Of a stretch of DNA of 64,000 nt, positions 11,085 through 62,164 are shown in pieces. Within the stretch, counting starts at the first letter, position 1; the number at the start of each line of letters is the position of its first letter. Origin of the DNA: a phage; the NCBI GenBank assembly GCA_036253495.1, contig GCA_036253495.1_4125.1, one strand, 5' to 3'. A program made the translations under genes and the position numbers. The notes under the pieces were generated by a model that did no database searches, had not been told where the DNA came from, and saw nothing but the letters and a program-made list of their open reading frames with translations.

Positions 11085-11150
11085 TTATTAATCCTTTAAG
11101 CCAATAAAGTACTGGGTCAGTACTGAAATTTTATATAGAAATATTTATCC

Positions 11151-18027: not shown

Positions 18028-18049
18028 GGTGGGACAAAGCTGATTTTAG

Positions 18050-18058
18050 TGCTATAAT
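18050..18058 (+). promoter_or_regulatory. extended -10 promoter (TGcTATAAT) upstream of gp55-like gene
   Basis: TGCTATAAT motif; the same motif recurs upstream of other plus-strand genes in the window. Confidence 0.5.
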
Positions 18059-18110
18059 ATTAGCGATGGCACACGGATTGTGCCTATTGGTCATTACATG
18101 GAGAGTTACA

Positions 18111-18950
18111 ATGATAAACAAGCCGAAGCGTAAGAAGTATCTGAATAACGCAGACTTATTACGTGAAATACATAAAAGTAAGATATCATACTGCTGGCTT
18201 TTGGATAAAAGTTATGGTATGTATGATTATATTGTGTTTCATGAGTCTGAAATCACAGAAGAATTACTTGAAAAGGCAAAAGCAGCACGAATCAAACGTT
18301 TGAATAATGAAATGCTTGATAGTGTTCGCGAAAAAGAGAATATGAGTGCTAAGAAAGCAAAGGAATATGCTGATGAGCACGGTCTATTCGTAAATGATGT
18401 ACCACTGGATGAAGTGGTGATTAGAGTTATCACTGATGAGCACATTCCACCAGATACACGAGTGAATTTTGAACCATTTAAACATTATATCGTTGATAAT
18501 GAAGGTATTCTGTATGAAGTTGTTCGTTCACATTGGAAAGGCGACTTGGAAGATGGCGATTTCTGCTTAACACATGGTAAAATCACAAATGAACTCGGTA
18601 AAATGTTCATTAAACTAGCCGAAGAGATCTCTCACAAATCTAACTACAGAAATTATACGTATTTGGATGAAATGATGGGTGATGCTAGAATACAATTAGT
18701 TAAAAATGCACTTCTCTTTAAAGAGAGTATCTTGTATAAGAAAGATAAACCCGCTGTCCAACTAAATCCTTTCTCATACTATACGTCATTCGTTAACAAT
18801 AGCTTCCGTTCTATTTTGAACAGTGAGAAGAATGTACGTAACATTCGCGACGACCTTCTTGAGATGCATGGTTTTACACCATCACATACAAGACAGATTG
18901 AAATCGAAATGAATATGATTGAAAGGAAAAATGACGATGGCACTATTTGA
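18111..18950 (+). CDS. 55: late sigma factor (T4 gp55-like) with internal extension
   Basis: N-terminus KPKRKKYLNNADLLREI resembles T4 gp55 (KPKYNYVNNKELLQAI) and C-terminal NPFSYYTSFVNNSFRSIL resembles NPHAYITQACFNAFVQRI; start placed at ATG with GGAGAG RBS. Confidence 0.65.
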   Translation: MINKPKRKKYLNNADLLREIHKSKISYCWLLDKSYGMYDYIVFHESEITEELLEKAKAARIKRLNNEMLDSVREKENMSAKKAKEYADEHGLFVNDVPLDEVVIRVITDEHIPPDTRVNFEPFKHYIVDNEGILYEVVRSHWKGDLEDGDFCLTHGKITNELGKMFIKLAEEISHKSNYRNYTYLDEMMGDARIQLVKNALLFKESILYKKDKPAVQLNPFSYYTSFVNNSFRSILNSEKNVRNIRDDLLEMHGFTPSHTRQIEIEMNMIERKNDDGTI

Positions 18951-22731: not shown

Positions 22732-22761
22732 TTGAGACACTTTTAAATTGCGTGCTATAAT
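22732..22761 (+). promoter_or_regulatory. strong sigma70-type promoter (TTGAGA-18 nt-TGcTATAAT) firing into ORF-free region
   Basis: -35 TTGAGA at 22732-22737, extended -10 TGCTATAAT at 22753-22761. Confidence 0.6.
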
Positions 22762-23711: not shown

Positions 23712-24599
23712 TTATTTCTTCTGGGTTTGAGAAGAGAAGCTGAGATCGAAAAAATGAGTAGGGTCATACTTTAATCCAGTAAGTTCCCATTGATGCTGAC
23801 ATTCAATACATTCAACTTCCATTGTATGCGATACACCAATCTCTAGTACTTCATCCATTTTCTCTCTGATTTGCTTGATCACTTCTTTTGATTGAGTACC
23901 TAACCATTCACTTATGAATTTCTTATCTGATACTTCATCACCATCAGGAGTAATTACCTTATCAATAACTCCAGCAATCATATCAAAGTTTAGTTGTGCC
24001 ATGTTTTCAAATACTTCAGAAAACATTTTAATTTTATCATCTTCAGAAATATCAATAGTACTTTCAAGATACTTAGTTTTTTGCTGTTCAGCTAACATAC
24101 GTTGAGAAAACTCTGAATATTCTTTCCAAGTAAGTGGTCTGAACTGAAGAGACAAACCATTATTAAGATCAATACTAGGAATTTCAGTAAAAGATTCTGC
24201 CGTTTCCAATAGATAAGAAAGATCACGTTCAAAACGGCCTTCTTTGGAACATGATGGACATACGACATTGACATCATAACTGGTTTCTTTGGATGCTAAC
24301 TTGATAGCAATAAGAATTTGCTCAACATCATTGACAAAAAGCTCATCTGCGTTTAGAATGTTTGGTACACAGTTTTCGATAACAGATGACACTGCACTAC
24401 CATTGAGTAACATATCAGGTGTATTGAGCATCATTTCGTCACGAGCACTACGAGCACAGACACCACATTTAATGCCTTTGCTCCCCAATACACCATCTTT
24501 GTACTGGAAAATGTTGTTAGTGACGAGTTTAGTACTAATTTCTTCGATTTTTGTGTATTTTGCTAACGGGTTCATTGACATAATACTTTCTCCATGCAA
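23712..24599 (-). CDS. hypothetical protein with three CxxC pairs (possible Zn-binding)
   Basis: 295-aa ORF; CGVC, CPSC and CIEC motifs; no recognisable NTPase motif. Confidence 0.6.
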   Translation of the reverse strand: MHGESIMSMNPLAKYTKIEEISTKLVTNNIFQYKDGVLGSKGIKCGVCARSARDEMMLNTPDMLLNGSAVSSVIENCVPNILNADELFVNDVEQILIAIKLASKETSYDVNVVCPSCSKEGRFERDLSYLLETAESFTEIPSIDLNNGLSLQFRPLTWKEYSEFSQRMLAEQQKTKYLESTIDISEDDKIKMFSEVFENMAQLNFDMIAGVIDKVITPDGDEVSDKKFISEWLGTQSKEVIKQIREKMDEVLEIGVSHTMEVECIECQHQWELTGLKYDPTHFFDLSFSSQTQKK

Positions 24600-24658
24600 T
24601 AATTATGAAAGTATTTATGTATGTTCAAAACTTCAAAATCACCCAAGAGGAATATTTT

Positions 24659-25147
24659 ATGATAAAGACAACAATCAAACGTTTGTTCCAAGCCTTTGGT
24701 ATCTTTATGGTTGTTATGTTAGTAATCGGTATGATTGTTCCGAAAAGCGAAACATCCACAACTAAAGAATCAGAGTACAAAGAGCAGTTAACTAAACGTG
24801 AATTACCAACACAAATTGTTAGCTACAAAGGTAAACTGTATAACGAAGATCCTAATGAGGAACATTTAAAATGGACATTCATCCAATTCACTGTTAACGG
24901 TGATGAAGTACTGATGGGTCAGACATATGAATCATGGAGTTATATTGGAAGTACTGCATCTGGATATGATGTTTATTACAACATTAACGACTTCACTTAT
25001 ACTGTCGGCGGTGTTCAAAAGACAGTAAAACTTGAAGGTACATTGTATGTTAATAGAGAAACAAACTCTATCATATTCAGTAATAAAAATGTTAGTGACG
25101 GTTCACCAAAACGAACCTATAGTGCAGTACTGGAACCACGATACTAA
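24659..25147 (+). CDS. small membrane-anchored protein (N-terminal TM helix), unknown function
   Basis: Start moved to ATG with AAGAGGAA RBS (MIKTTIKRLFQAFGIFMVVMLVIGMIVP...); hydrophobic N-terminus then soluble domain. Confidence 0.5.
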   Translation: MIKTTIKRLFQAFGIFMVVMLVIGMIVPKSETSTTKESEYKEQLTKRELPTQIVSYKGKLYNEDPNEEHLKWTFIQFTVNGDEVLMGQTYESWSYIGSTASGYDVYYNINDFTYTVGGVQKTVKLEGTLYVNRETNSIIFSNKNVSDGSPKRTYSAVLEPRY

Positions 25148-31070: not shown

Positions 31071-31138
31071 CATTTTAAAATTATAAATATTTGTATATTT
31101 GAAGTACAGATATTTCAGTACTTAAAGGAGAGAACAGA

Positions 31139-32257: not shown

Positions 32258-32349
32258 ACATTTTAAAGCATTTTAATAATCAATTTTTTCAGTACCATAA
32301 ATAATAACATACTGAAAAACGAATATAACATCTTTAAGGAGATAATATA

Positions 32350-36069: not shown

Positions 36070-37680
36070 ATGAGCATAAGTTTTAATCATCCACAGAATA
36101 CTGTAACCAGTACTGCGGAAAATGGTTCATTGAATCTAATAGTACTAGGTGGTACACCAACTAATCCTCGACCAATTAGAATGAATTCTTCATCGGTAAT
36201 ACTACCTGTTCAGGATTTGCCTGTTGGTGAAGCAGGGGCGATAGTATTTGACAAAAACACTCTTACTTTGAAGTATCATGATGGTACTAACTGGATTGAA
36301 ATGTTAAGTGCTGCCGATGTAGTTGCACCAATTGAACAACAGATTCAGGATATCAATTCTATACTTGGAACTAAGGTTGATAGAGTAACCTATTCAATGT
36401 CATCAATTCCAACTGCTTCTATTAGCGGAACTACATTGAATATTATATTCCCAACACCTTCATCAATTCAAGGTGCTAATGGTTTGTACACGAGTGCTAA
36501 ACCTGGATGTATTATGCATTATAGCTTGACATCTGGACAAACCGTTGCTAGTATACGTGAACAAATGTCGGGTAGTACTGGTGGACAGAGTGGTCGTGAC
36601 GGCTCCCAAGCTAAACCGTGGAAAACATCCGATGGTTGGTGTTTTGCTGATGGTATGTGGTGGCAGTGGCAAGGTGCTAATGGTACAATAACCAAACAAG
36701 TACCAAACTTGAACCGTGATGGATATTTAAGAAGTATCACCACTAGTGGTATAACCAAAACTGACGCAATGATAGCAGGTGGTGGTTCATTAACACCGAG
36801 TACTTTCACTATTCCAGACCACATTCATGGGACTGGTAAAATGTTAGGTACTAACGGTAGTGATGCGGATGATGCTGTTTTCATTAGTGGTAGAGCATGG
36901 AATGATGGCAGAGGCTATCGTGGTCCTGCAATCTTTGGTGATAAGAATGCCCGTATGGAGTTTAGTGTAGATGGTAACAATGCAGCAACTGCATTATCAA
37001 CTTCACAACCAATTTATGATGATGCGAATGCACGCACAATAACCCATAACCATACAGTAACAGGTATTGACGTACCACACTTTAACACTGCAATTTTGTA
37101 TAACATTTCCGAACCATCAGTTGCGATGAGCGAAAATACTGCAAATGGTCGTTTTGTTCGTAAAACTGGTGATACAATGTCTGGTGAATTATACATTGCT
37201 AACCGTGCTGGTATTCGTGGTGGTGGTGATTTGTACTTATTCTTCCAGAACGCTAGTGGTGGTGAACGTGCCGCAGTATACTTCCAAGGTAATGAACTAA
37301 GACTTCGTGCTGGTGGTGGTGCTGTAACAGTTAACAGTGGTGGTTCTTTGTATATACCAGGTTCATTAACAGTTAACGCAGCATCAGCAACTGTCGGAAC
37401 GAAACATATAGTACGTTCTGTTAACGGCTCAACTGCTGGTTCTGATGGTAATGTAAATATATCTGTCGGATCAGTACAAGATGTACGTTTTTTCAATCAA
37501 GATTATTATTGGCCGGGTGGTAATGAGTTATCATGGCACTTTGTGTGTCCATCAGGTGCAGTACTAAGTGGTATAAATGTACAAGATGTTGGTAAAAACT
37601 CTGCTGATAACATTGGTGGTGTGAATTATAAATTTATACAAATTTTGGTTGATGGTAGCTGGAGAAATATAAACGGATAA
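36070..37680 (+). CDS. tail-fiber-like protein (putative receptor-binding protein)
   Basis: 536 aa, Gly-rich; RKTGDTMSGELYI motif of the kind seen in phage tail fibres; TATAAATA at 36031-36038 upstream. Confidence 0.55.
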   Translation: MSISFNHPQNTVTSTAENGSLNLIVLGGTPTNPRPIRMNSSSVILPVQDLPVGEAGAIVFDKNTLTLKYHDGTNWIEMLSAADVVAPIEQQIQDINSILGTKVDRVTYSMSSIPTASISGTTLNIIFPTPSSIQGANGLYTSAKPGCIMHYSLTSGQTVASIREQMSGSTGGQSGRDGSQAKPWKTSDGWCFADGMWWQWQGANGTITKQVPNLNRDGYLRSITTSGITKTDAMIAGGGSLTPSTFTIPDHIHGTGKMLGTNGSDADDAVFISGRAWNDGRGYRGPAIFGDKNARMEFSVDGNNAATALSTSQPIYDDANARTITHNHTVTGIDVPHFNTAILYNISEPSVAMSENTANGRFVRKTGDTMSGELYIANRAGIRGGGDLYLFFQNASGGERAAVYFQGNELRLRAGGGAVTVNSGGSLYIPGSLTVNAASATVGTKHIVRSVNGSTAGSDGNVNISVGSVQDVRFFNQDYYWPGGNELSWHFVCPSGAVLSGINVQDVGKNSADNIGGVNYKFIQILVDGSWRNING

Positions 37681-38139: not shown

Positions 38140-38237
38140 AAATTTGGGACACATTGAGAAGTACTGATATAATAGAGACATTCCACGAGGAACATTGTGG
38201 AGTGTCTATTTTTTCATTAACACATGGAGATACAACA

Positions 38238-42109: not shown

Positions 42110-42139
42110 TTGAGACAAGCACTGTTAACGAGATATAAT
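42110..42139 (+). promoter_or_regulatory. sigma70-type promoter (TTGAGA-18 nt-TATAAT)
   Basis: Hexamers at 42110-42115 and 42134-42139, upstream of ATG 42195. Confidence 0.5.
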
Positions 42140-44962: not shown

Positions 44963-45562
44963 TTATAGTTGAACTGGTAGAGCAGCACGAACTTTAATAG
45001 CTACAGCTTTAGCAGCTTCAGCATCACCAACACCATCAGTAGTAACATCTACGAAAGATTTAGTACGGAAGAATTTAGCTTGAGCGATTACTTTAGCTAG
45101 TTCAACAGTTGGATCAACTGGAACAGAGTAAGCAGCACCTGGACGAACATCTTGTTTAGCGAAAACGTCTTGACGTTCGCAGATGAAGGTTAGTGCAACA
45201 GAACCAGCACCGCCAGCAACATCAGCACCAGAAGTACCGAAAGCAACTACGTTACCGCCAACAGTTTTGAAATCCGCTGGGATTACTACGTCAGTGTCAA
45301 GAGCTAGTACAGAAGTAGTAACTAGAACAGCACGTTGTTGTAGTAGTTGGGTTAGCATGAATTGGTTGTATTGTGCGTTAGTGATCGCAGTTTGTAGTGC
45401 TTCATCTTGTAGTTCAGAACCATCGGAAGTTACTTTGGTAGTACCAACTTCAACATCTGCTGGTAGATCAACAACGATAGTTACAAAACCATTATCACCA
45501 CCCCAGTACTCACGGGAGTTAGCAGACATACCATAGTTACGGTTAAAAGAATTAAGACTCAT
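44963..45562 (-). CDS. abundant-protein-like paralog B (unknown; putative virion component)
   Basis: 199 aa; paralogous to 44255-44947; same codon-usage signature. Confidence 0.55.
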   Translation of the reverse strand: MSLNSFNRNYGMSANSREYWGGDNGFVTIVVDLPADVEVGTTKVTSDGSELQDEALQTAITNAQYNQFMLTQLLQQRAVLVTTSVLALDTDVVIPADFKTVGGNVVAFGTSGADVAGGAGSVALTFICERQDVFAKQDVRPGAAYSVPVDPTVELAKVIAQAKFFRTKSFVDVTTDGVGDAEAAKAVAIKVRAALPVQL

Positions 45563-45605: not shown

Positions 45606-45685
45606 ATTATTTATCAATTATTTAAAAGCACCCACATAATAAGTGATTTTCTTTCCTTGATTATATGCTATTATTTATCAATTAT
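45606..45685 (-). promoter_or_regulatory. two copies of a 16-nt direct repeat (ATTATTTATCAATTAT) upstream of the paralog operon; on the minus strand each contains GATAAATA
   Basis: Exact copies at 45606-45621 and 45670-45685. Confidence 0.4.
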
Positions 45686-45704
45686 GGGAAGAGACATTTA
45701 TATG

Positions 45705-45713
45705 TGCTATAAT
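45705..45713 (+). promoter_or_regulatory. extended -10 promoter (TGcTATAAT) upstream of RNase H gene
   Basis: TGTGCTATAAT motif about 80 nt upstream of ATG 45792. Confidence 0.45.
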
Positions 45714-47297: not shown

Positions 47298-52199
<4,902 letters not shown>

Positions 52200-54734: not shown

Positions 54735-56219
54735 ATGAATACTTGTAAGCTAACCTTATTGGATGAGGTTAATTGTAAATTTGAAGGACTTTCTCCTTCA
54801 ATTCGTCAAAAGATGATTAGGGCAACTGAATATGTGTTGCCTTATGCTAAATTCACCCCAGCAGGTAGAATCGGGCGTTGGGATGGAAAAGTTCAATTTA
54901 TGAATTTAGGTGGAAGCACTTACTTTCATATGCTTGACAAACTTTTACCTATTCTTGAAGAAGCTAACATTGACATTGAACTTGAAGACCATAGACCAAA
55001 TTATGGATTCAATTTTGAACCTATTGATGAAAATATCTTTAGTGATGTGGTTTTTGGTGCTGGACACCACATGGAAGGTAAGTCAATCAAGCTCAGGGAG
55101 CACCAGGTTAATGCAGTTAATGCTTGCCTTGCTAACCCACATGGTTTATTATTAGCTGCTACTGGTGCGGGTAAGACGCTAATCACAGCAGCATTATCCA
55201 AGAAGGTCCAAGAGTATGGACGTTCTGTTATTATTGTACCTAGTACTGATCTAGTTCAACAGACATATGATGATTATGTCATGTGTGGACTAGACACTGG
55301 TGTTTTTTATGGTGCACAAAAGGATTTTGGTCACCAACACACAATCACAACATGGCAATCATTCAACTCTTTATGGAAAAAGACGAAGAAGGGTGAAATT
55401 GAACTAACTGAACAAGACGTTCATGATTTCATCGATGGTGTTGTGTGTGTTATCGTTGATGAATGTCAAGGTGCTGGTGGTGATGCATTAGTGCAGGTTC
55501 TATCAAAGGTAATGAACAATGTCCCGTTGCGTTGGGGACTAACTGGTACAATACCAAAAGATCCAGTAGTTGCAGCAAAGATAAAATGTAATGTTGGTGA
55601 TGTGATTTTCAAAATCACTGCAAAAGAATTACAAGATAAACAAATTCTAAGTACCTGTAACGTAAACTGTATCAAATTAAAAAGTAATTTAAAATTTGCA
55701 TCATATGCAGAAGAATTAAAATACTTAGTAACTGACCGTGACCGAATGGCATATGTGGCATCTTTGATAAGTGCACTGTCTGAATCTGGTAACACGTTGG
55801 TTCTTGTTGACCGTTTGGAAGCTGGTGAATTGTTATGTGAATTTTTGGGAATCCCCAAAACTGAATTTGTTCGTGGTGAAACGAAGAAGAAAGACCGTGA
55901 ATCATCATATGGTGAAATTCGCTGGGCTGACAACAAAATACTCATTGCAACATATGGTGTAGCTAGTACTGGTATTAGTATTTCACGTTTATATAACGTA
56001 GTACTGATAGAGCCAGGTAAAAGCTTTGTGCGAACTATACAGTCCATTGGACGTGGGTTGCGTAGAGCAGAAGATAAAGACCACGTAGAAATTTATGATA
56101 TAAGTGGATCTAATAAGTACAGTGCAAAACACTTACGTGAAAGAATTGCATATTATAAAGAAGCACAATATCCACATAGTGTAATCGACGTGAAAGATTG
56201 GGAAAATACAGCGGGATAA
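54735..56219 (+). CDS. SF2 DNA helicase (UvsW-like)
   Basis: Motif I AATGAGKT, motif II VIVDECQ, motif VI SIGRGLRR. Confidence 0.75.
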   Translation: MNTCKLTLLDEVNCKFEGLSPSIRQKMIRATEYVLPYAKFTPAGRIGRWDGKVQFMNLGGSTYFHMLDKLLPILEEANIDIELEDHRPNYGFNFEPIDENIFSDVVFGAGHHMEGKSIKLREHQVNAVNACLANPHGLLLAATGAGKTLITAALSKKVQEYGRSVIIVPSTDLVQQTYDDYVMCGLDTGVFYGAQKDFGHQHTITTWQSFNSLWKKTKKGEIELTEQDVHDFIDGVVCVIVDECQGAGGDALVQVLSKVMNNVPLRWGLTGTIPKDPVVAAKIKCNVGDVIFKITAKELQDKQILSTCNVNCIKLKSNLKFASYAEELKYLVTDRDRMAYVASLISALSESGNTLVLVDRLEAGELLCEFLGIPKTEFVRGETKKKDRESSYGEIRWADNKILIATYGVASTGISISRLYNVVLIEPGKSFVRTIQSIGRGLRRAEDKDHVEIYDISGSNKYSAKHLRERIAYYKEAQYPHSVIDVKDWENTAG

Positions 56220-56273
56220 TCCCGCTGTTAATGATATAATGGACTGTATAATAAATCAAGGATGTTAACAAAT

Positions 56274-58744: not shown

Positions 58745-59070
58745 ATAATAAAAGTATATACAATAAAATACCAGAAGGGTACGTTCCTGTACCTAAATCG
58801 GACAAAAGTAAAGAATTACAATTACTTCGTCAAGGAAGCATAACTGAAATAACATTGGGTGACAAAACGTTCCAAGTTCATGATCCAGTAAAAATAGAAC
58901 AATTGATTAAGCTAGTCGAGAGGCATGAAGAACGTTTACATTCTGTGTCTAATGAGTCAGCACAGTTGAAAAGAAAGATTCAGTACATGGAAAACGAAAT
59001 ACGAACCTTAAGAAATTCTATTAATAAATTACAGGATCAAATAAAGAATGCAGGATTCAACCAATTCTAA
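58741..59070 (+). CDS. hypothetical coiled-coil protein
   Basis: 109-aa ORF overlapping neighbours. Confidence 0.45.
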   Translation: MNNKSIYNKIPEGYVPVPKSDKSKELQLLRQGSITEITLGDKTFQVHDPVKIEQLIKLVERHEERLHSVSNESAQLKRKIQYMENEIRTLRNSINKLQDQIKNAGFNQF

Positions 59071-59686
59071 TCATTACAGAAAAGCTAGAACAGATATTGA
59101 TATTGATTTTAAAGATAGTAAATCTGTCATAGCTCAATTGCCATGTGTAAGAAGTACTGAAAAGATTACAGAAGATGGATTGATTGCACATAATAGTGGT
59201 GTACACTTTGATAATATTCCAATCGATCCAATAACTGGTTTGGCGAGTATACAATATAAAGAAGCCGAAAGATTGGGGTATCAGAAGGTTGATATCCTTT
59301 CACAATCGGCTTACATGTATGTTCGTGACAGAGAACATCTAAAGGAACTTATGAACAGAGAGCCTAATTGGGATCTGTTGTTAGAACCAGAAATTGTTGA
59401 TCATTTATCACAAATTAAAAAGCATATAACTTTACTTAATGTTTGGAAACCCCGTTCTATAGACGAGTTGGCTATGTTTATTGCTATGATTCGCCCAGGG
59501 AAACGAAATTGTCAAAGTATGAACTCTTGGTCTGAAGTAGAATCGGTTATTTGGGATTATAGTAGTATTGGGCTAGATAGTGAGGGCAAAAAATTGCGTT
59601 ATTTTAAAAAACCACATGCTTATGCTTATAGCTTAATGATTGTGGTACAATTAAACGCATTGGTTGAACATCTTACTTCTTCTTAA
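59048..59686 (+). CDS. mini DnaE-like protein (carries Pol III alpha core-like motifs); function unknown
   Basis: 212 aa; DIDIDF (cf. DnaE PDFDVDF), AHNSGV (cf. KHAGGV), AMIRPGK (cf. ALFRPGP), KPHAYAYSL (cf. KSHSAAYAL); recalled from memory. Confidence 0.4.
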   Translation: MQDSTNSNHYRKARTDIDIDFKDSKSVIAQLPCVRSTEKITEDGLIAHNSGVHFDNIPIDPITGLASIQYKEAERLGYQKVDILSQSAYMYVRDREHLKELMNREPNWDLLLEPEIVDHLSQIKKHITLLNVWKPRSIDELAMFIAMIRPGKRNCQSMNSWSEVESVIWDYSSIGLDSEGKKLRYFKKPHAYAYSLMIVVQLNALVEHLTSS

Positions 59687-60026
59687 GTGCCACATTACGT
59701 CTTTTAATACGTTTTTGTGGCAAATCACTTAACGAAATTACCGGACCACAAACGAAATTCACCATAGGCGTATCGAAGCGTTGTGTGAAAGGTTCAAATT
59801 TCTCCATTTCTTCTTGAAAGAAAAGACACACTGGGATTGACCTGTTACTTTGCCACCACCAATCGTGTGCTATTCCTAACAATTCATCTTGCATAGATTC
59901 ATCCATAAGATCAAAACAATACAAAGTAGTATATTGCTTACTTTTAATCTTGATGATACCAATGTAAGTTTTACCATTATATTGCAGTACTGTAATAAAT
60001 GGTGGAATAGTATTATATTGATTCAT
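59673..60026 (-). CDS. hypothetical protein (lone minus-strand gene in a plus-strand block)
   Basis: 117-aa ORF; CATAAATA late-type motif on minus strand at 60063-60070. Confidence 0.45.
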   Translation of the reverse strand: MNQYNTIPPFITVLQYNGKTYIGIIKIKSKQYTTLYCFDLMDESMQDELLGIAHDWWWQSNRSIPVCLFFQEEMEKFEPFTQRFDTPMVNFVCGPVISLSDLPQKRIKRRNVALKKK

Positions 60027-60033
60027 ATGAGTT

Positions 60034-60071
60034 CCATAAATATTAGTATAAATTTATACCTATTATTTATG
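60034..60071. promoter_or_regulatory. palindromic divergent late-promoter pair (CCATAAATA ... TATTTATGG)
   Basis: Perfect 9-bp inverted repeat flanking a 20-nt AT-rich spacer, between divergent genes starting at 60026 and 60084. Confidence 0.45.
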
Positions 60072-60083
60072 GAAGGAATAATC

Positions 60084-61061
60084 ATGTCCCATCACGGTGT
60101 GTATATGTACCCTTATAATCAGGAAGTATCATTGGGCAATTTTAATATGCCATTTAACAATGATAAGTTAACGATTTATCGTGGTGCTAACAATAACGTA
60201 ACTTTCACAGTACACAATGCTGATGGAAAGTACACTCAATTAAAAACTAATGAATATTTAACATTTATGATTTTCGATGCACGTAACAACACGATTTTGT
60301 TTGATACTGTATTGGAAAAGATTTTACCAAGTTGGTTAAACGATAGTGGTCAGGCTAAACCTACTTTGGGTAATAGTAAAAAAGTATATTATGGTTGTAT
60401 AATCCCTGCTGGTATTATACAAGATACTAGCCCTGGTTCCAAATACAGATGGAGTATTACTAAAGTAACTATGGACGGTTCGTTGATTGAACCAACACAG
60501 TACTTATATACTGGTTTAAATTATGAAGCATCATCTGAACTAATTATCTCCGACAAAGCAGCACCTGTTTTCGTACCAAGCATTGAAGTTTCTGCTGATC
60601 AGAATCCATCTTGGAAATCTATCAAGTCTGCGTTCAGAGAACCTATTAGTGATGGTTTTAAAGGTGAATTTGATGTTATGTGTACATCGCCTTTGAGAGC
60701 ACAAATGCAATATGGTTTAGTTGATGGTTTAAGTACTATTGCAATTTACTGTAATGGTTTTATTGGTAGGATACAGTTACAAGGATGCTTGAGTAATGAT
60801 GTACCAAGTGATAGTGATAACTATAAGTGGTTTATTATCAAGTTGGATGGAAAAGAGTACATCGAGAATGGCATAGATGAGAATGGCGTACCTGTTCCGT
60901 TGGAAGGTATACAGGCATTTAATTTTAAAGGTAATTACATGTGGCTTCGTGTGGTTGTTAGTATTCGTCCAATCTCCAAACCAATCCCATATGATTATGC
61001 TGCAATCCGTAAAATCTATAACCCACTCTTAACTGTTCCTAAAATTTTGATTCGTCGATGA
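60084..61061 (+). CDS. hypothetical protein (possibly structural)
   Basis: Start moved to ATG 60084 with GGAAGGA RBS; the longer track ORF from 59889 runs through the promoter region. Confidence 0.5.
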   Translation: MSHHGVYMYPYNQEVSLGNFNMPFNNDKLTIYRGANNNVTFTVHNADGKYTQLKTNEYLTFMIFDARNNTILFDTVLEKILPSWLNDSGQAKPTLGNSKKVYYGCIIPAGIIQDTSPGSKYRWSITKVTMDGSLIEPTQYLYTGLNYEASSELIISDKAAPVFVPSIEVSADQNPSWKSIKSAFREPISDGFKGEFDVMCTSPLRAQMQYGLVDGLSTIAIYCNGFIGRIQLQGCLSNDVPSDSDNYKWFIIKLDGKEYIENGIDENGVPVPLEGIQAFNFKGNYMWLRVVVSIRPISKPIPYDYAAIRKIYNPLLTVPKILIRR

Positions 61062-61078
61062 GACATACTCATAAGCTG

Positions 61079-61087
61079 TGATATAAT
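61079..61087 (+). promoter_or_regulatory. extended -10 promoter (TGaTATAAT) upstream of primase gene
   Basis: TGTGATATAAT motif about 30 nt upstream of ATG 61115. Confidence 0.45.
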
Positions 61088-61114
61088 CATCGAAGACAAG
61101 AAAAGGAATTACAT

Positions 61115-62164
61115 ATGAACTCAGTACAAGACATTATGGCACAAATCATGAATGACCCTGTACCTGGTATTGGTATATGGGCACACCACAACTGTCCTAT
61201 GTGTGTGTTTCGTGGACATTCAAGACCTGATGTAAAGGGTCGTGGTAATCATATGTTTAATTCTGATGGTTCAGTATCTTATAACTGTTTTAACTGTAGT
61301 TTAAAGACAGGTTGGCAACCTGGAAAATATATGAGCAAAGATATGGAGTCTTTGCTCATTTCTTTTGGTGCACAACAAAAAGATATAGAATTATTAAAAT
61401 TTTACATAAAAGAAATGGTAGAGAGTGGTGATTATGCTGAACAAGAGTCTACCACATCGAAGTTATATCAAAGGGTAACAGCACGCGATTTACCACCTAA
61501 TTCAAAGACATTTTTTGAATGGGCTTCAGATGATAATGCACCCAATGAATTTTTTAGTGTACTGAATGCAGTAAATGACCGAAATCCATATCTATTGGAT
61601 TTGGAATTATATTGGAGTCCATCTAAAGAACATAAAATGTATGATAGATTTATTATACCTTACTATATGAATGGTAAAATAATTGGGTATACTGCAAGAC
61701 ATAAATTAAAAGACCCAGGAAGTACGTATCGTTTTATTAATCAGGTAAGTACTAATATTTTGTACAATTATGATTTGTTGAATGATGAACGTATAAAAAC
61801 TTTATTGGTATGTGAAGGACCAATGGATGCCGCATTGATGGGTGGTGTATCAGCAAATAACTTTAAGTTATCTACACCACAGATTGAAATACTTAAACAG
61901 GCACAGAGTAAAGGTAAAAAAGTAGTAATTGTACCAGACAGGGATAAAGATGGATTAGTGACAATTGACCAAGCATTAGAGCATGGTTTTAGTGTTGCCT
62001 TTCCAAACTTTGGAGCCGTAAAAGAAGGTAGTGGTATTCGTCACATAAAAGATTTTGACGAAGCCTGTGCCAAATATGGTCGTTTATTTTGTCTACAACT
62101 AATACATGAAAGTATAGTTGACGAACCTTTCTATATCAAAGCACAAACCGATAAATGGATGTAA
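61115..62164 (+). CDS. 61: DNA primase (T4 gp61-like; zinc ribbon + TOPRIM)
   Basis: Zn-binding CPMCVF...CFNC; TOPRIM LLVCEGPMDAA and VVIVPDRDKDG. Confidence 0.8.
   Translation: MNSVQDIMAQIMNDPVPGIGIWAHHNCPMCVFRGHSRPDVKGRGNHMFNSDGSVSYNCFNCSLKTGWQPGKYMSKDMESLLISFGAQQKDIELLKFYIKEMVESGDYAEQESTTSKLYQRVTARDLPPNSKTFFEWASDDNAPNEFFSVLNAVNDRNPYLLDLELYWSPSKEHKMYDRFIIPYYMNGKIIGYTARHKLKDPGSTYRFINQVSTNILYNYDLLNDERIKTLLVCEGPMDAALMGGVSANNFKLSTPQIEILKQAQSKGKKVVIVPDRDKDGLVTIDQALEHGFSVAFPNFGAVKEGSGIRHIKDFDEACAKYGRLFCLQLIHESIVDEPFYIKAQTDKWM

Follow-up and report, generated by a model that had tools for sequence, protein, structure and literature searches.

Opposed copies of a T4-like late promoter probably form the inverted repeat between two divergent genes of an Asteriusvirus jumbo coliphage

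The inverted repeat that lies between two divergent genes of an Asteriusvirus jumbo coliphage very probably consists of two opposed copies of a T4-like late promoter, one serving each gene. The DNA analysed is one stretch of 64,000 nucleotides, referred to as the window, and all coordinates are those of the window. The phage is a member of the RaK2-like group. Over the 4.2 kb that surround the repeat, its identity is 99.5% to Escherichia phage A4 (ON286972, genus Asteriusvirus, 355 kb) and ~78% to 121Q, PBECO4 and some 35 further jumbo coliphages. The local gene order (a small ORF annotated 'DNA polymerase', a 117-aa minus-strand ORF, a virion structural protein, primase and a DnaB-like helicase) is common to Asteriusvirus, Alcyoneusvirus (RaK2), Mimasvirus (GAP32, CBB), Eneladusvirus (the Yersinia phage fHe-Yen9-03), the Salmonella phage Munch and the Xanthomonas phage XaC1. 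The 117-aa ORF is the sole minus-strand gene from ~45.8 kb to 64 kb. Both genes next to the repeat were found where the first-pass annotation had placed them (59673-60026 on the minus strand, and from 60084 onwards on the plus strand), and the divergent intergenic region between them measures 57 bp. The orthologue of the plus-strand product in CBB, CBB_289, is marked as a structural protein in the CBB supplement; the minus-strand partner, CBB_288, carries no structural mark there. The features of the site are:

59673-60026, minus strand: gene for a 117-aa protein (phrog_11637), with predicted late expression
60032-60035, minus strand: Shine-Dalgarno-like GGAA of the 117-aa gene (TTCC on the plus strand), at the outer end of the left arm; the minus strand reads TATGGAACTCATATG
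60036-60042, plus strand: late-promoter core ATAAATA in the left arm, 48 nt before the ATG at 60084
60046-60059: inner perfect 14-bp palindrome GTATAAATTTATAC, within the spacer
60064-60070, minus strand: late-promoter core ATAAATA (TATTTAT on the plus strand) in the right arm, 44 nt before the ATG at 60026
60071-60077, plus strand: Shine-Dalgarno sequence GGAAGGA of the structural gene, read from the sequence; its first 4 nt are the outer end of the right arm
60084-61061, plus strand: gene for a virion structural protein of 325 aa (phrog_14467)

The repeat had been described as a perfect 9-bp inverted repeat ending at 60071, with a 20-nt spacer that contains TATAAATT. The 9-bp match is indeed perfect (CCATAAATA at 60034-60042 and TATTTATGG at 60064-60072), which puts its end one base further, and TATAAATT is present at 60047-60054; the spacer itself is 21 nt long (60043-60063). 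The perfect match can be extended to 11 bp (TTCCATAAATA at 60032-60042 and TATTTATGGAA at 60064-60074) and the arms to 15 nt at 93% identity, with a single mismatch (60032-60046 and 60060-60074), so that near-perfect dyad symmetry spans 43 bp. The extension of the arms by TTCC/GGAA beyond the 7-bp core arises from the ribosome-binding sites, each of which directly adjoins the core that serves the opposite gene. The dyad symmetry thus reflects a symmetric layout of the region, ATG-SD-core ... core-SD-ATG.

The length of the repeat is by itself not significant. In dinucleotide shuffles of the window, 14.5 ± 4.6 perfect 9-bp inverted repeats with a spacer of at most 30 nt are expected (39 observed) and 1.3 ± 1.4 of 11 bp (7 observed), while a search with the whole-arm pattern TATTTATGGAA, allowing up to 2 mismatches, was uninformative (67 matches, 53.6 expected). 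The significance of the repeat comes from its motif content, its location and its conservation. That it is a chance inverted repeat, for which the expected number of 9-bp repeats leaves room, or a bidirectional intrinsic terminator, given that the stem-loop would be stable if transcribed, is extremely improbable: conservation of the region extends across genera, the stem is rich in A-U pairs and is followed not by a U-tract but by GGAAGGAAUAAUC, a terminator scan misses the repeat, and the repeat lies at the 5' ends of both genes rather than at their 3' ends. A search of 59000-61600 against Rfam at a permissive threshold returned no match.

The core of each arm belongs to a distinct class of sites in the window. 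In an unbiased count of all 7-mers, ATAAATA was the most enriched one in the 70 nt that precede each of 58 genes, taken in the orientation of the gene, with an enrichment exceeding that of the Shine-Dalgarno 7-mers. Eighteen of its 21 copies on both strands are found, pointing at a gene, within 2.9% of the sequence space (p = 2.6e-25). Over the whole window the motif is depleted (21 copies versus 33.8 expected), and is therefore avoided inside genes. Its targets are mostly virion genes, including those for the baseplate wedge and hub, prohead protease, scaffold, major capsid protein and tail fibre; several proteins annotated as structural and endonuclease VII are further targets. Single oriented copies precede ~16 genes other than the pair discussed here, at distances of 13-64 nt between motif and ATG, a range that includes both copies of the repeat. 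The motif has 15 copies in 50 kb of RaK2, of which 11, the orthologous pair among them, are located upstream of genes and directed towards them.

Alignment of the sites showed little outside the core. The information at each position from -19 to 0 relative to the motif was at most 0.43 bit, which indicates that there is no -35 element. The base preceding ATAAATA is most often C, as in both copies of the repeat, and a T is not conserved at this position. Downstream, a T 2 nt past the motif (14/19 sites) and an A 6 nt past the motif (13/19) are conserved. Flanks were scored in bits by a leave-one-out procedure. The plus-strand site scored +5.8, which is above the 95th percentile of random sites, and the minus-strand site -1.5, at the low end of the class; both values fall among those of the other candidate promoters. 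Scores were -10 to -14 for the three intragenic copies of ATAAATA and -8.5 ± 6 for random sequence. The T4 octamer TATAAATA had also been considered as the motif of this phage and was dropped in favour of ATAAATA, since it is not enriched in the window (5 copies versus 8.9 expected), which is explained by the loss of its first T. The predicted late promoter of these phages is nATAAATA and not the T4 octamer.

A second promoter class in the window has the form G(G/A)GACA-N14-15-TG(C/A)TATAAT, with an extended -10 element, and is found upstream of replication and regulatory genes; its targets include the genes for the late sigma factor, the DNA polymerase block, RNase H and primase. The sites are:

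18029-18058, plus strand: second promoter class
22733-22761, plus strand: second promoter class
38145-38173, plus strand: second promoter class
42111-42139, plus strand: second promoter class
45685-45713, plus strand: second promoter class
50937-50965, plus strand: second promoter class
51013-51041, plus strand: second promoter class
56212-56240, plus strand: second promoter class
61059-61087, plus strand: middle-type promoter TGAGACA-N15-TGATATAAT, immediately before the primase gene

These sites resemble the TGAAACG...TATAAT promoters reported for CBB and GAP32 (PMC5259590), and the one at 61059-61087 has an identical 29-nt layout. The middle-type promoter of the primase gene shows that the late gene pair forms an island among replication genes.

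The existence of this separate class for replication genes (GRGACA-N15-TGMTATAAT) also bears on the question whether the two ATAAATA elements could be -10 boxes of host sigma-70 promoters, active early or constitutively. The motif is A/T-rich and resembles a -10 box, and in the fHe-Yen9-03 record the minus-strand copy is annotated as the -10 signal for g286c, together with a -35 signal; the records of A4 and 121Q have no promoters annotated at the site. We consider host sigma-70 promoters very unlikely, given that the would-be -35 position upstream of the motif holds no information, that a consensus scan yielded only weak 9/12 matches at the site and fewer sites than in shuffles, and that the targets of ATAAATA are overwhelmingly virion genes.

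A candidate for the protein that reads ATAAATA is encoded in the window:

18066-18950, plus strand: gene for a gp55-family late sigma factor, the presumed reader of ATAAATA

The product matches phrog_12791 at 1.5e-151 and phrog_234, 'late sigma transcription factor', at 3.6e-17. In tblastn searches gp55 of S-PM2 and of other T4-like cyanophages was found at 1e-6 to 6e-9, and the gene is annotated in A4 as 'sigma factor for late transcription'; a sequence search of the PDB gave no match to gp55. Compared with T4 gp55, the protein of 294 aa has an extra N-terminal part, and the homology is found at residues ~140-277.

The sites share with T4 late promoters that they are short and consist of a -10 element only, with an ATAAATA core, an A ~6 nt downstream and a position upstream of virion genes. 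The T4 late promoter TATAAATA spans -13 to -6 (PMC1524935); the cores of the present sites correspond to -12 to -6, and the position of the A past the motif fits the T4 geometry. They differ from T4 in that the first T of the octamer is not conserved, a loss that is also seen in RB49, KVP40, S-PM2 and others (PMC1524935). In CBB, homologues of gp33 and gp45 were reported as undetected (PMC5259590); for this reason, the mechanism of activation may differ from that of T4.

The motif has been predicted before in relatives of this phage. Buttimer et al. 2017 applied MEME to the regions upstream of structural genes of CBB and obtained ATAAATA followed by an A/T-rich stretch as the predicted late promoter (PMC5259590). 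The same late motif was predicted in GAP32, and a gp55-like sigma factor was noted (PMC5259590). Table S7 of that study lists Porf_289 (ATAAATATTGTATA, 210,031-210,044) as a predicted late promoter (PMC5259590), which is the positional orthologue of the plus-strand copy at 60036-60042. The table was built only from regions upstream of structural genes and does not contain a Porf_288 (PMC5259590); the minus-strand partner and the facing arrangement are thus not described there. Two other entries, Porf_251 (176,198-176,211) and Porf_250 (176,224-176,237), are 13 nt apart (PMC5259590) and may be a second facing pair in CBB. The matching region of the window, which is divergent as well (24582-24660), has a minus-strand copy of ATAAATA only.

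Conservation of the pair was assessed by comparison with relatives. A run of 49 nt (60030-60078) shows 100% identity with 121Q, in a compared region that is ~78% identical; among the identical runs in these 9 kb it ranks third in length. Both ATAAATA and TATTTAT are invariant in the 17 distinct orthologous intergenic regions that were compared, which come from isolates of at least five lineages (Asteriusvirus, Alcyoneusvirus, Mimasvirus, Eneladusvirus, Munch-like phages and XaC1) and from uncultured IMG/VR contigs. The spacer differs in sequence among these 17 and is 19-25 nt long. The inner palindrome is not conserved outside Asteriusvirus, and symmetry beyond the 7-bp core is not kept. The purine-rich Shine-Dalgarno sequence of the plus-strand gene is found at the same place in all relatives, and the equivalent of the minus-strand gene is likewise purine-rich (the reverse complement of CTTCC, CTCCC or CCATCC). 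In the two most distant homologous loci, which are metagenomic and have 35-40% protein identity, the promoter pair was not recognisable; the conserved range of the pair therefore comprises the RaK2-like isolates and close uncultured relatives. A further conserved run, at 60104-60153 in the N-terminal coding part of the structural gene, was considered as an element at the nucleotide level and ruled out, as third codon positions vary across genera, which indicates conservation at the level of the protein.

Two conserved elements at variable spacing, with no symmetry past the core, argue for two independent promoters and not for the operator of a dimeric DNA-binding protein, for which the symmetry had also been considered suitable. 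Such an operator, bound for instance by the 117-aa protein as an autoregulator, could exist instead of or besides the promoters. The near-perfect 43-bp dyad symmetry speaks for it, as do the small divergent gene that adjoins the site and the invariant basic C-terminal tail of its product. Dimeric binding is nevertheless disfavoured and in our view highly improbable: the half-sites are 19-25 nt apart in the relatives, neither the inner palindrome nor the symmetry outside ATAAATA is conserved, and elsewhere ATAAATA occurs as a single, oriented motif rather than as half of a palindrome. The protein itself has no Pfam domain. Its AlphaFold model is confident (pLDDT 86.6), yet showed no significant fold match in the PDB, with no helix-turn-helix (HTH) or RHH fold among the matches, and in BFVD no protein of known function was matched significantly. 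The family (phrog_11637) comprises 48 clusters, all from RaK2-like phages, with W57, SNR60-62, P65 and GP94-95 as invariant residues and a conserved, strongly basic C-terminal tail, KR.KRR.

Overall, the divergent late-type promoter pair proposed by the first-pass annotation is supported, at the level of sequence, by the enrichment of the motif, its virion targets, the gp55-family gene, the invariance of both copies and the CBB listing. Host RNA polymerase with the phage gp55-like sigma factor would presumably read the -10-only ATAAATA. The plus-strand copy (60036-60042) would fire rightwards into the virion structural gene (60084-61061) and the minus-strand copy (60070-60064) leftwards into the 117-aa gene (59673-60026). 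The promoters had been described as back-to-back; their orientation is instead face-to-face and overlapping, with each core adjoining the gene that it does not serve. When the T4 spacing is applied, transcription is predicted to start at ~60048 (A) on the plus strand and at ~60057/60058 on the minus strand, both within GTA of the inner palindrome. The 5' ends of the two transcripts would overlap by ~10-11 nt, and each core would lie ~17-23 nt downstream of the predicted start of the other promoter. We infer the late timing, the exact start sites and the dependence on the sigma factor from these features of the DNA; late expression of the 117-aa gene is predicted from the ATAAATA motif alone. 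A literature search for transcription start or RNA-seq reports on Asteriusvirus or RaK2-like phages found none.

The first-pass annotation had read TATAAATT in the spacer as another late-type motif. This reading did not hold up, as ATAAATT occurs 45 times with 5 copies upstream of genes, and neither TATAAATT, ATAAATT nor near matches to the inner palindrome showed enrichment or positional bias in the window. TATAAATT coincides with the predicted initiation region. One site resembling the spacer motif, TTATAAATTTATAC, was seen at 37626.

The arrangement resembles that of face-to-face interfering promoter pairs in that the starts, on opposite strands, are separated by ~10 bp, and the initially transcribed region of either promoter contains the -10 element of the other, a likeness that is drawn here from coordinates alone. 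Classical pairs of this kind use sigma-70 promoters. Given the known size of the RNA polymerase footprint, simultaneous occupancy of both promoters on one DNA molecule would be impossible. We tentatively raise the idea, which we regard as rather doubtful, that the facing pair is a conserved regulatory device and not just a product of compaction, either by mutual exclusion that would determine how much 117-aa protein is made relative to the virion protein, or by arms that would gate translation.

Gating of translation would add to the promoters a hairpin like that of T4 genes e, soc, 49 and I-TevI, which use such a gate with an internal late promoter (PMC3014915). As in leaders of the T4 gene e type, the late promoter is located in the 5' arm and the Shine-Dalgarno sequence in the 3' arm of a potential hairpin. 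Middle RNA reading through from upstream would fold the arms and bury the Shine-Dalgarno sequence of the structural gene; late RNA would start in the loop, lack the 5' arm and be translated. The read-through RNA is predicted to fold the arms at -17 kcal/mol (z = -2.8), and the predicted late leaders are essentially unstructured (-1.9 and -1.4 kcal/mol). In 17 of 17 orthologous sequences, the left arm is paired with the right arm and the Shine-Dalgarno sequence in the fold of minimum energy, and in Mimasvirus, Eneladusvirus and related uncultured contigs the pairing probability of the Shine-Dalgarno sequence was 0.78-0.89 in the long RNA versus 0.29-0.72 in the predicted late RNA. Read-through could come from the closest upstream middle-type promoter on the plus strand, at ~56212-56240, and a scan of 59686-60084 found no intrinsic terminator between the upstream plus-strand genes and the repeat. 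We nevertheless judge such a gate unlikely. Unlike in the T4 leaders, the hairpin here follows automatically from two opposed modules of promoter and Shine-Dalgarno sequence, so that no separate selection is needed for the complementarity. Covariation is uninformative, as the 7 core pairs are invariant and the flanking pairs show one double change only; the consensus stem is weak (-2.5 kcal/mol), with a core that is all A-U. In the window itself, pairing of the Shine-Dalgarno sequence differs little between the long and the late RNA (0.64 versus 0.59). The symmetric half would be without use, as no minus-strand transcription enters from the right, and read-through is not required, the primase gene having its own promoter. 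Should the gate exist, it would amount to the T4 lysozyme gate in symmetric form, and would have been kept throughout the RaK2-like isolates and the related uncultured contigs that were examined. The preferred reading of the site remains that of two late promoters facing each other.

The gene for the major capsid protein has its late promoter (ATAAATA at 32297-32303) in a loop, between the arms TTTTTCAGTA / TACTGAAAAA of a perfect 10-bp inverted repeat at 32285-32319; the predicted start is at the beginning of the right arm of this repeat. Two tandem late-promoter cores on the minus strand (45608-45614 and 45672-45678), each after AATTG, precede the structural gene at 44963-45562 and share a 229-bp divergent region with the middle-type promoter of RNase H. 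Inside the primase ORF, a perfect hairpin with a 12-bp stem, ATGAGCAAAGAT...ATCTTTGCTCAT, is present at 61331-61359. The 54 nt at 61322-61375 in which it falls are the longest stretch without a difference from 121Q over the compared 9 kb, and the terminator scan picked up the hairpin on both strands.

The word counts brought out another motif. CAGTACT, with the core AGTACT, is the most frequent 7-mer in the window as well as in 50 kb of A4 and 50 kb of RaK2, with 102 matches on both strands versus 7.9 ± 3.1 in shuffles. AGTACT itself occurs at 123 sites versus 21.7 expected from base composition, which makes it the most over-represented 6-bp palindrome (5.7-fold). Its usual form is CAGTACT or CAGTACTG; examples are found at 59985-59992, 11118-11125, 31116-31122 and 32288-32295. 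The sites occur in all reading frames and on both strands, in genic as well as intergenic DNA, and positional conservation of TTCAGTAC between A4 and 121Q was seen for 1 of 4 sites. This distribution points to selection for the density of the motif rather than for particular sites; a binding, modification or nicking site is among the possible roles. A literature search on over-representation of AGTACT or CAGTACT found nothing, and the abundance of CAGTACT seems more surprising than the promoter pair. Five other 6-bp palindromes (CCATGG, CAGCTG, AGGCCT, AGCGCT and ACCGGT) do not occur in the window (0 each versus ~6.7 expected), which is consistent with avoidance of restriction sites.

The large terminase (47304-49615, plus strand) is represented by two CDSs in A4 (A4_29 and A4_30), and the window has an extra overlapping ORF between them. 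In RaK2 the terminase is a single 2.67-kb gene. The split in A4 could be due to an intron, an intein, a frameshift or a split gene.

The promoter pair is a conserved but ordinary regulatory feature, with a motif that had already been predicted in related phages; it improves the annotation and leaves current understanding unchanged. For a group of jumbo phages of ~350 kb that is almost unstudied, the analysis provides testable late-promoter coordinates together with predicted starts, and the site offers a compact test case for interference between facing promoters. The conserved 117-aa gene would be assigned to late expression and, together with the virion gene, would form a late island in the replication module.
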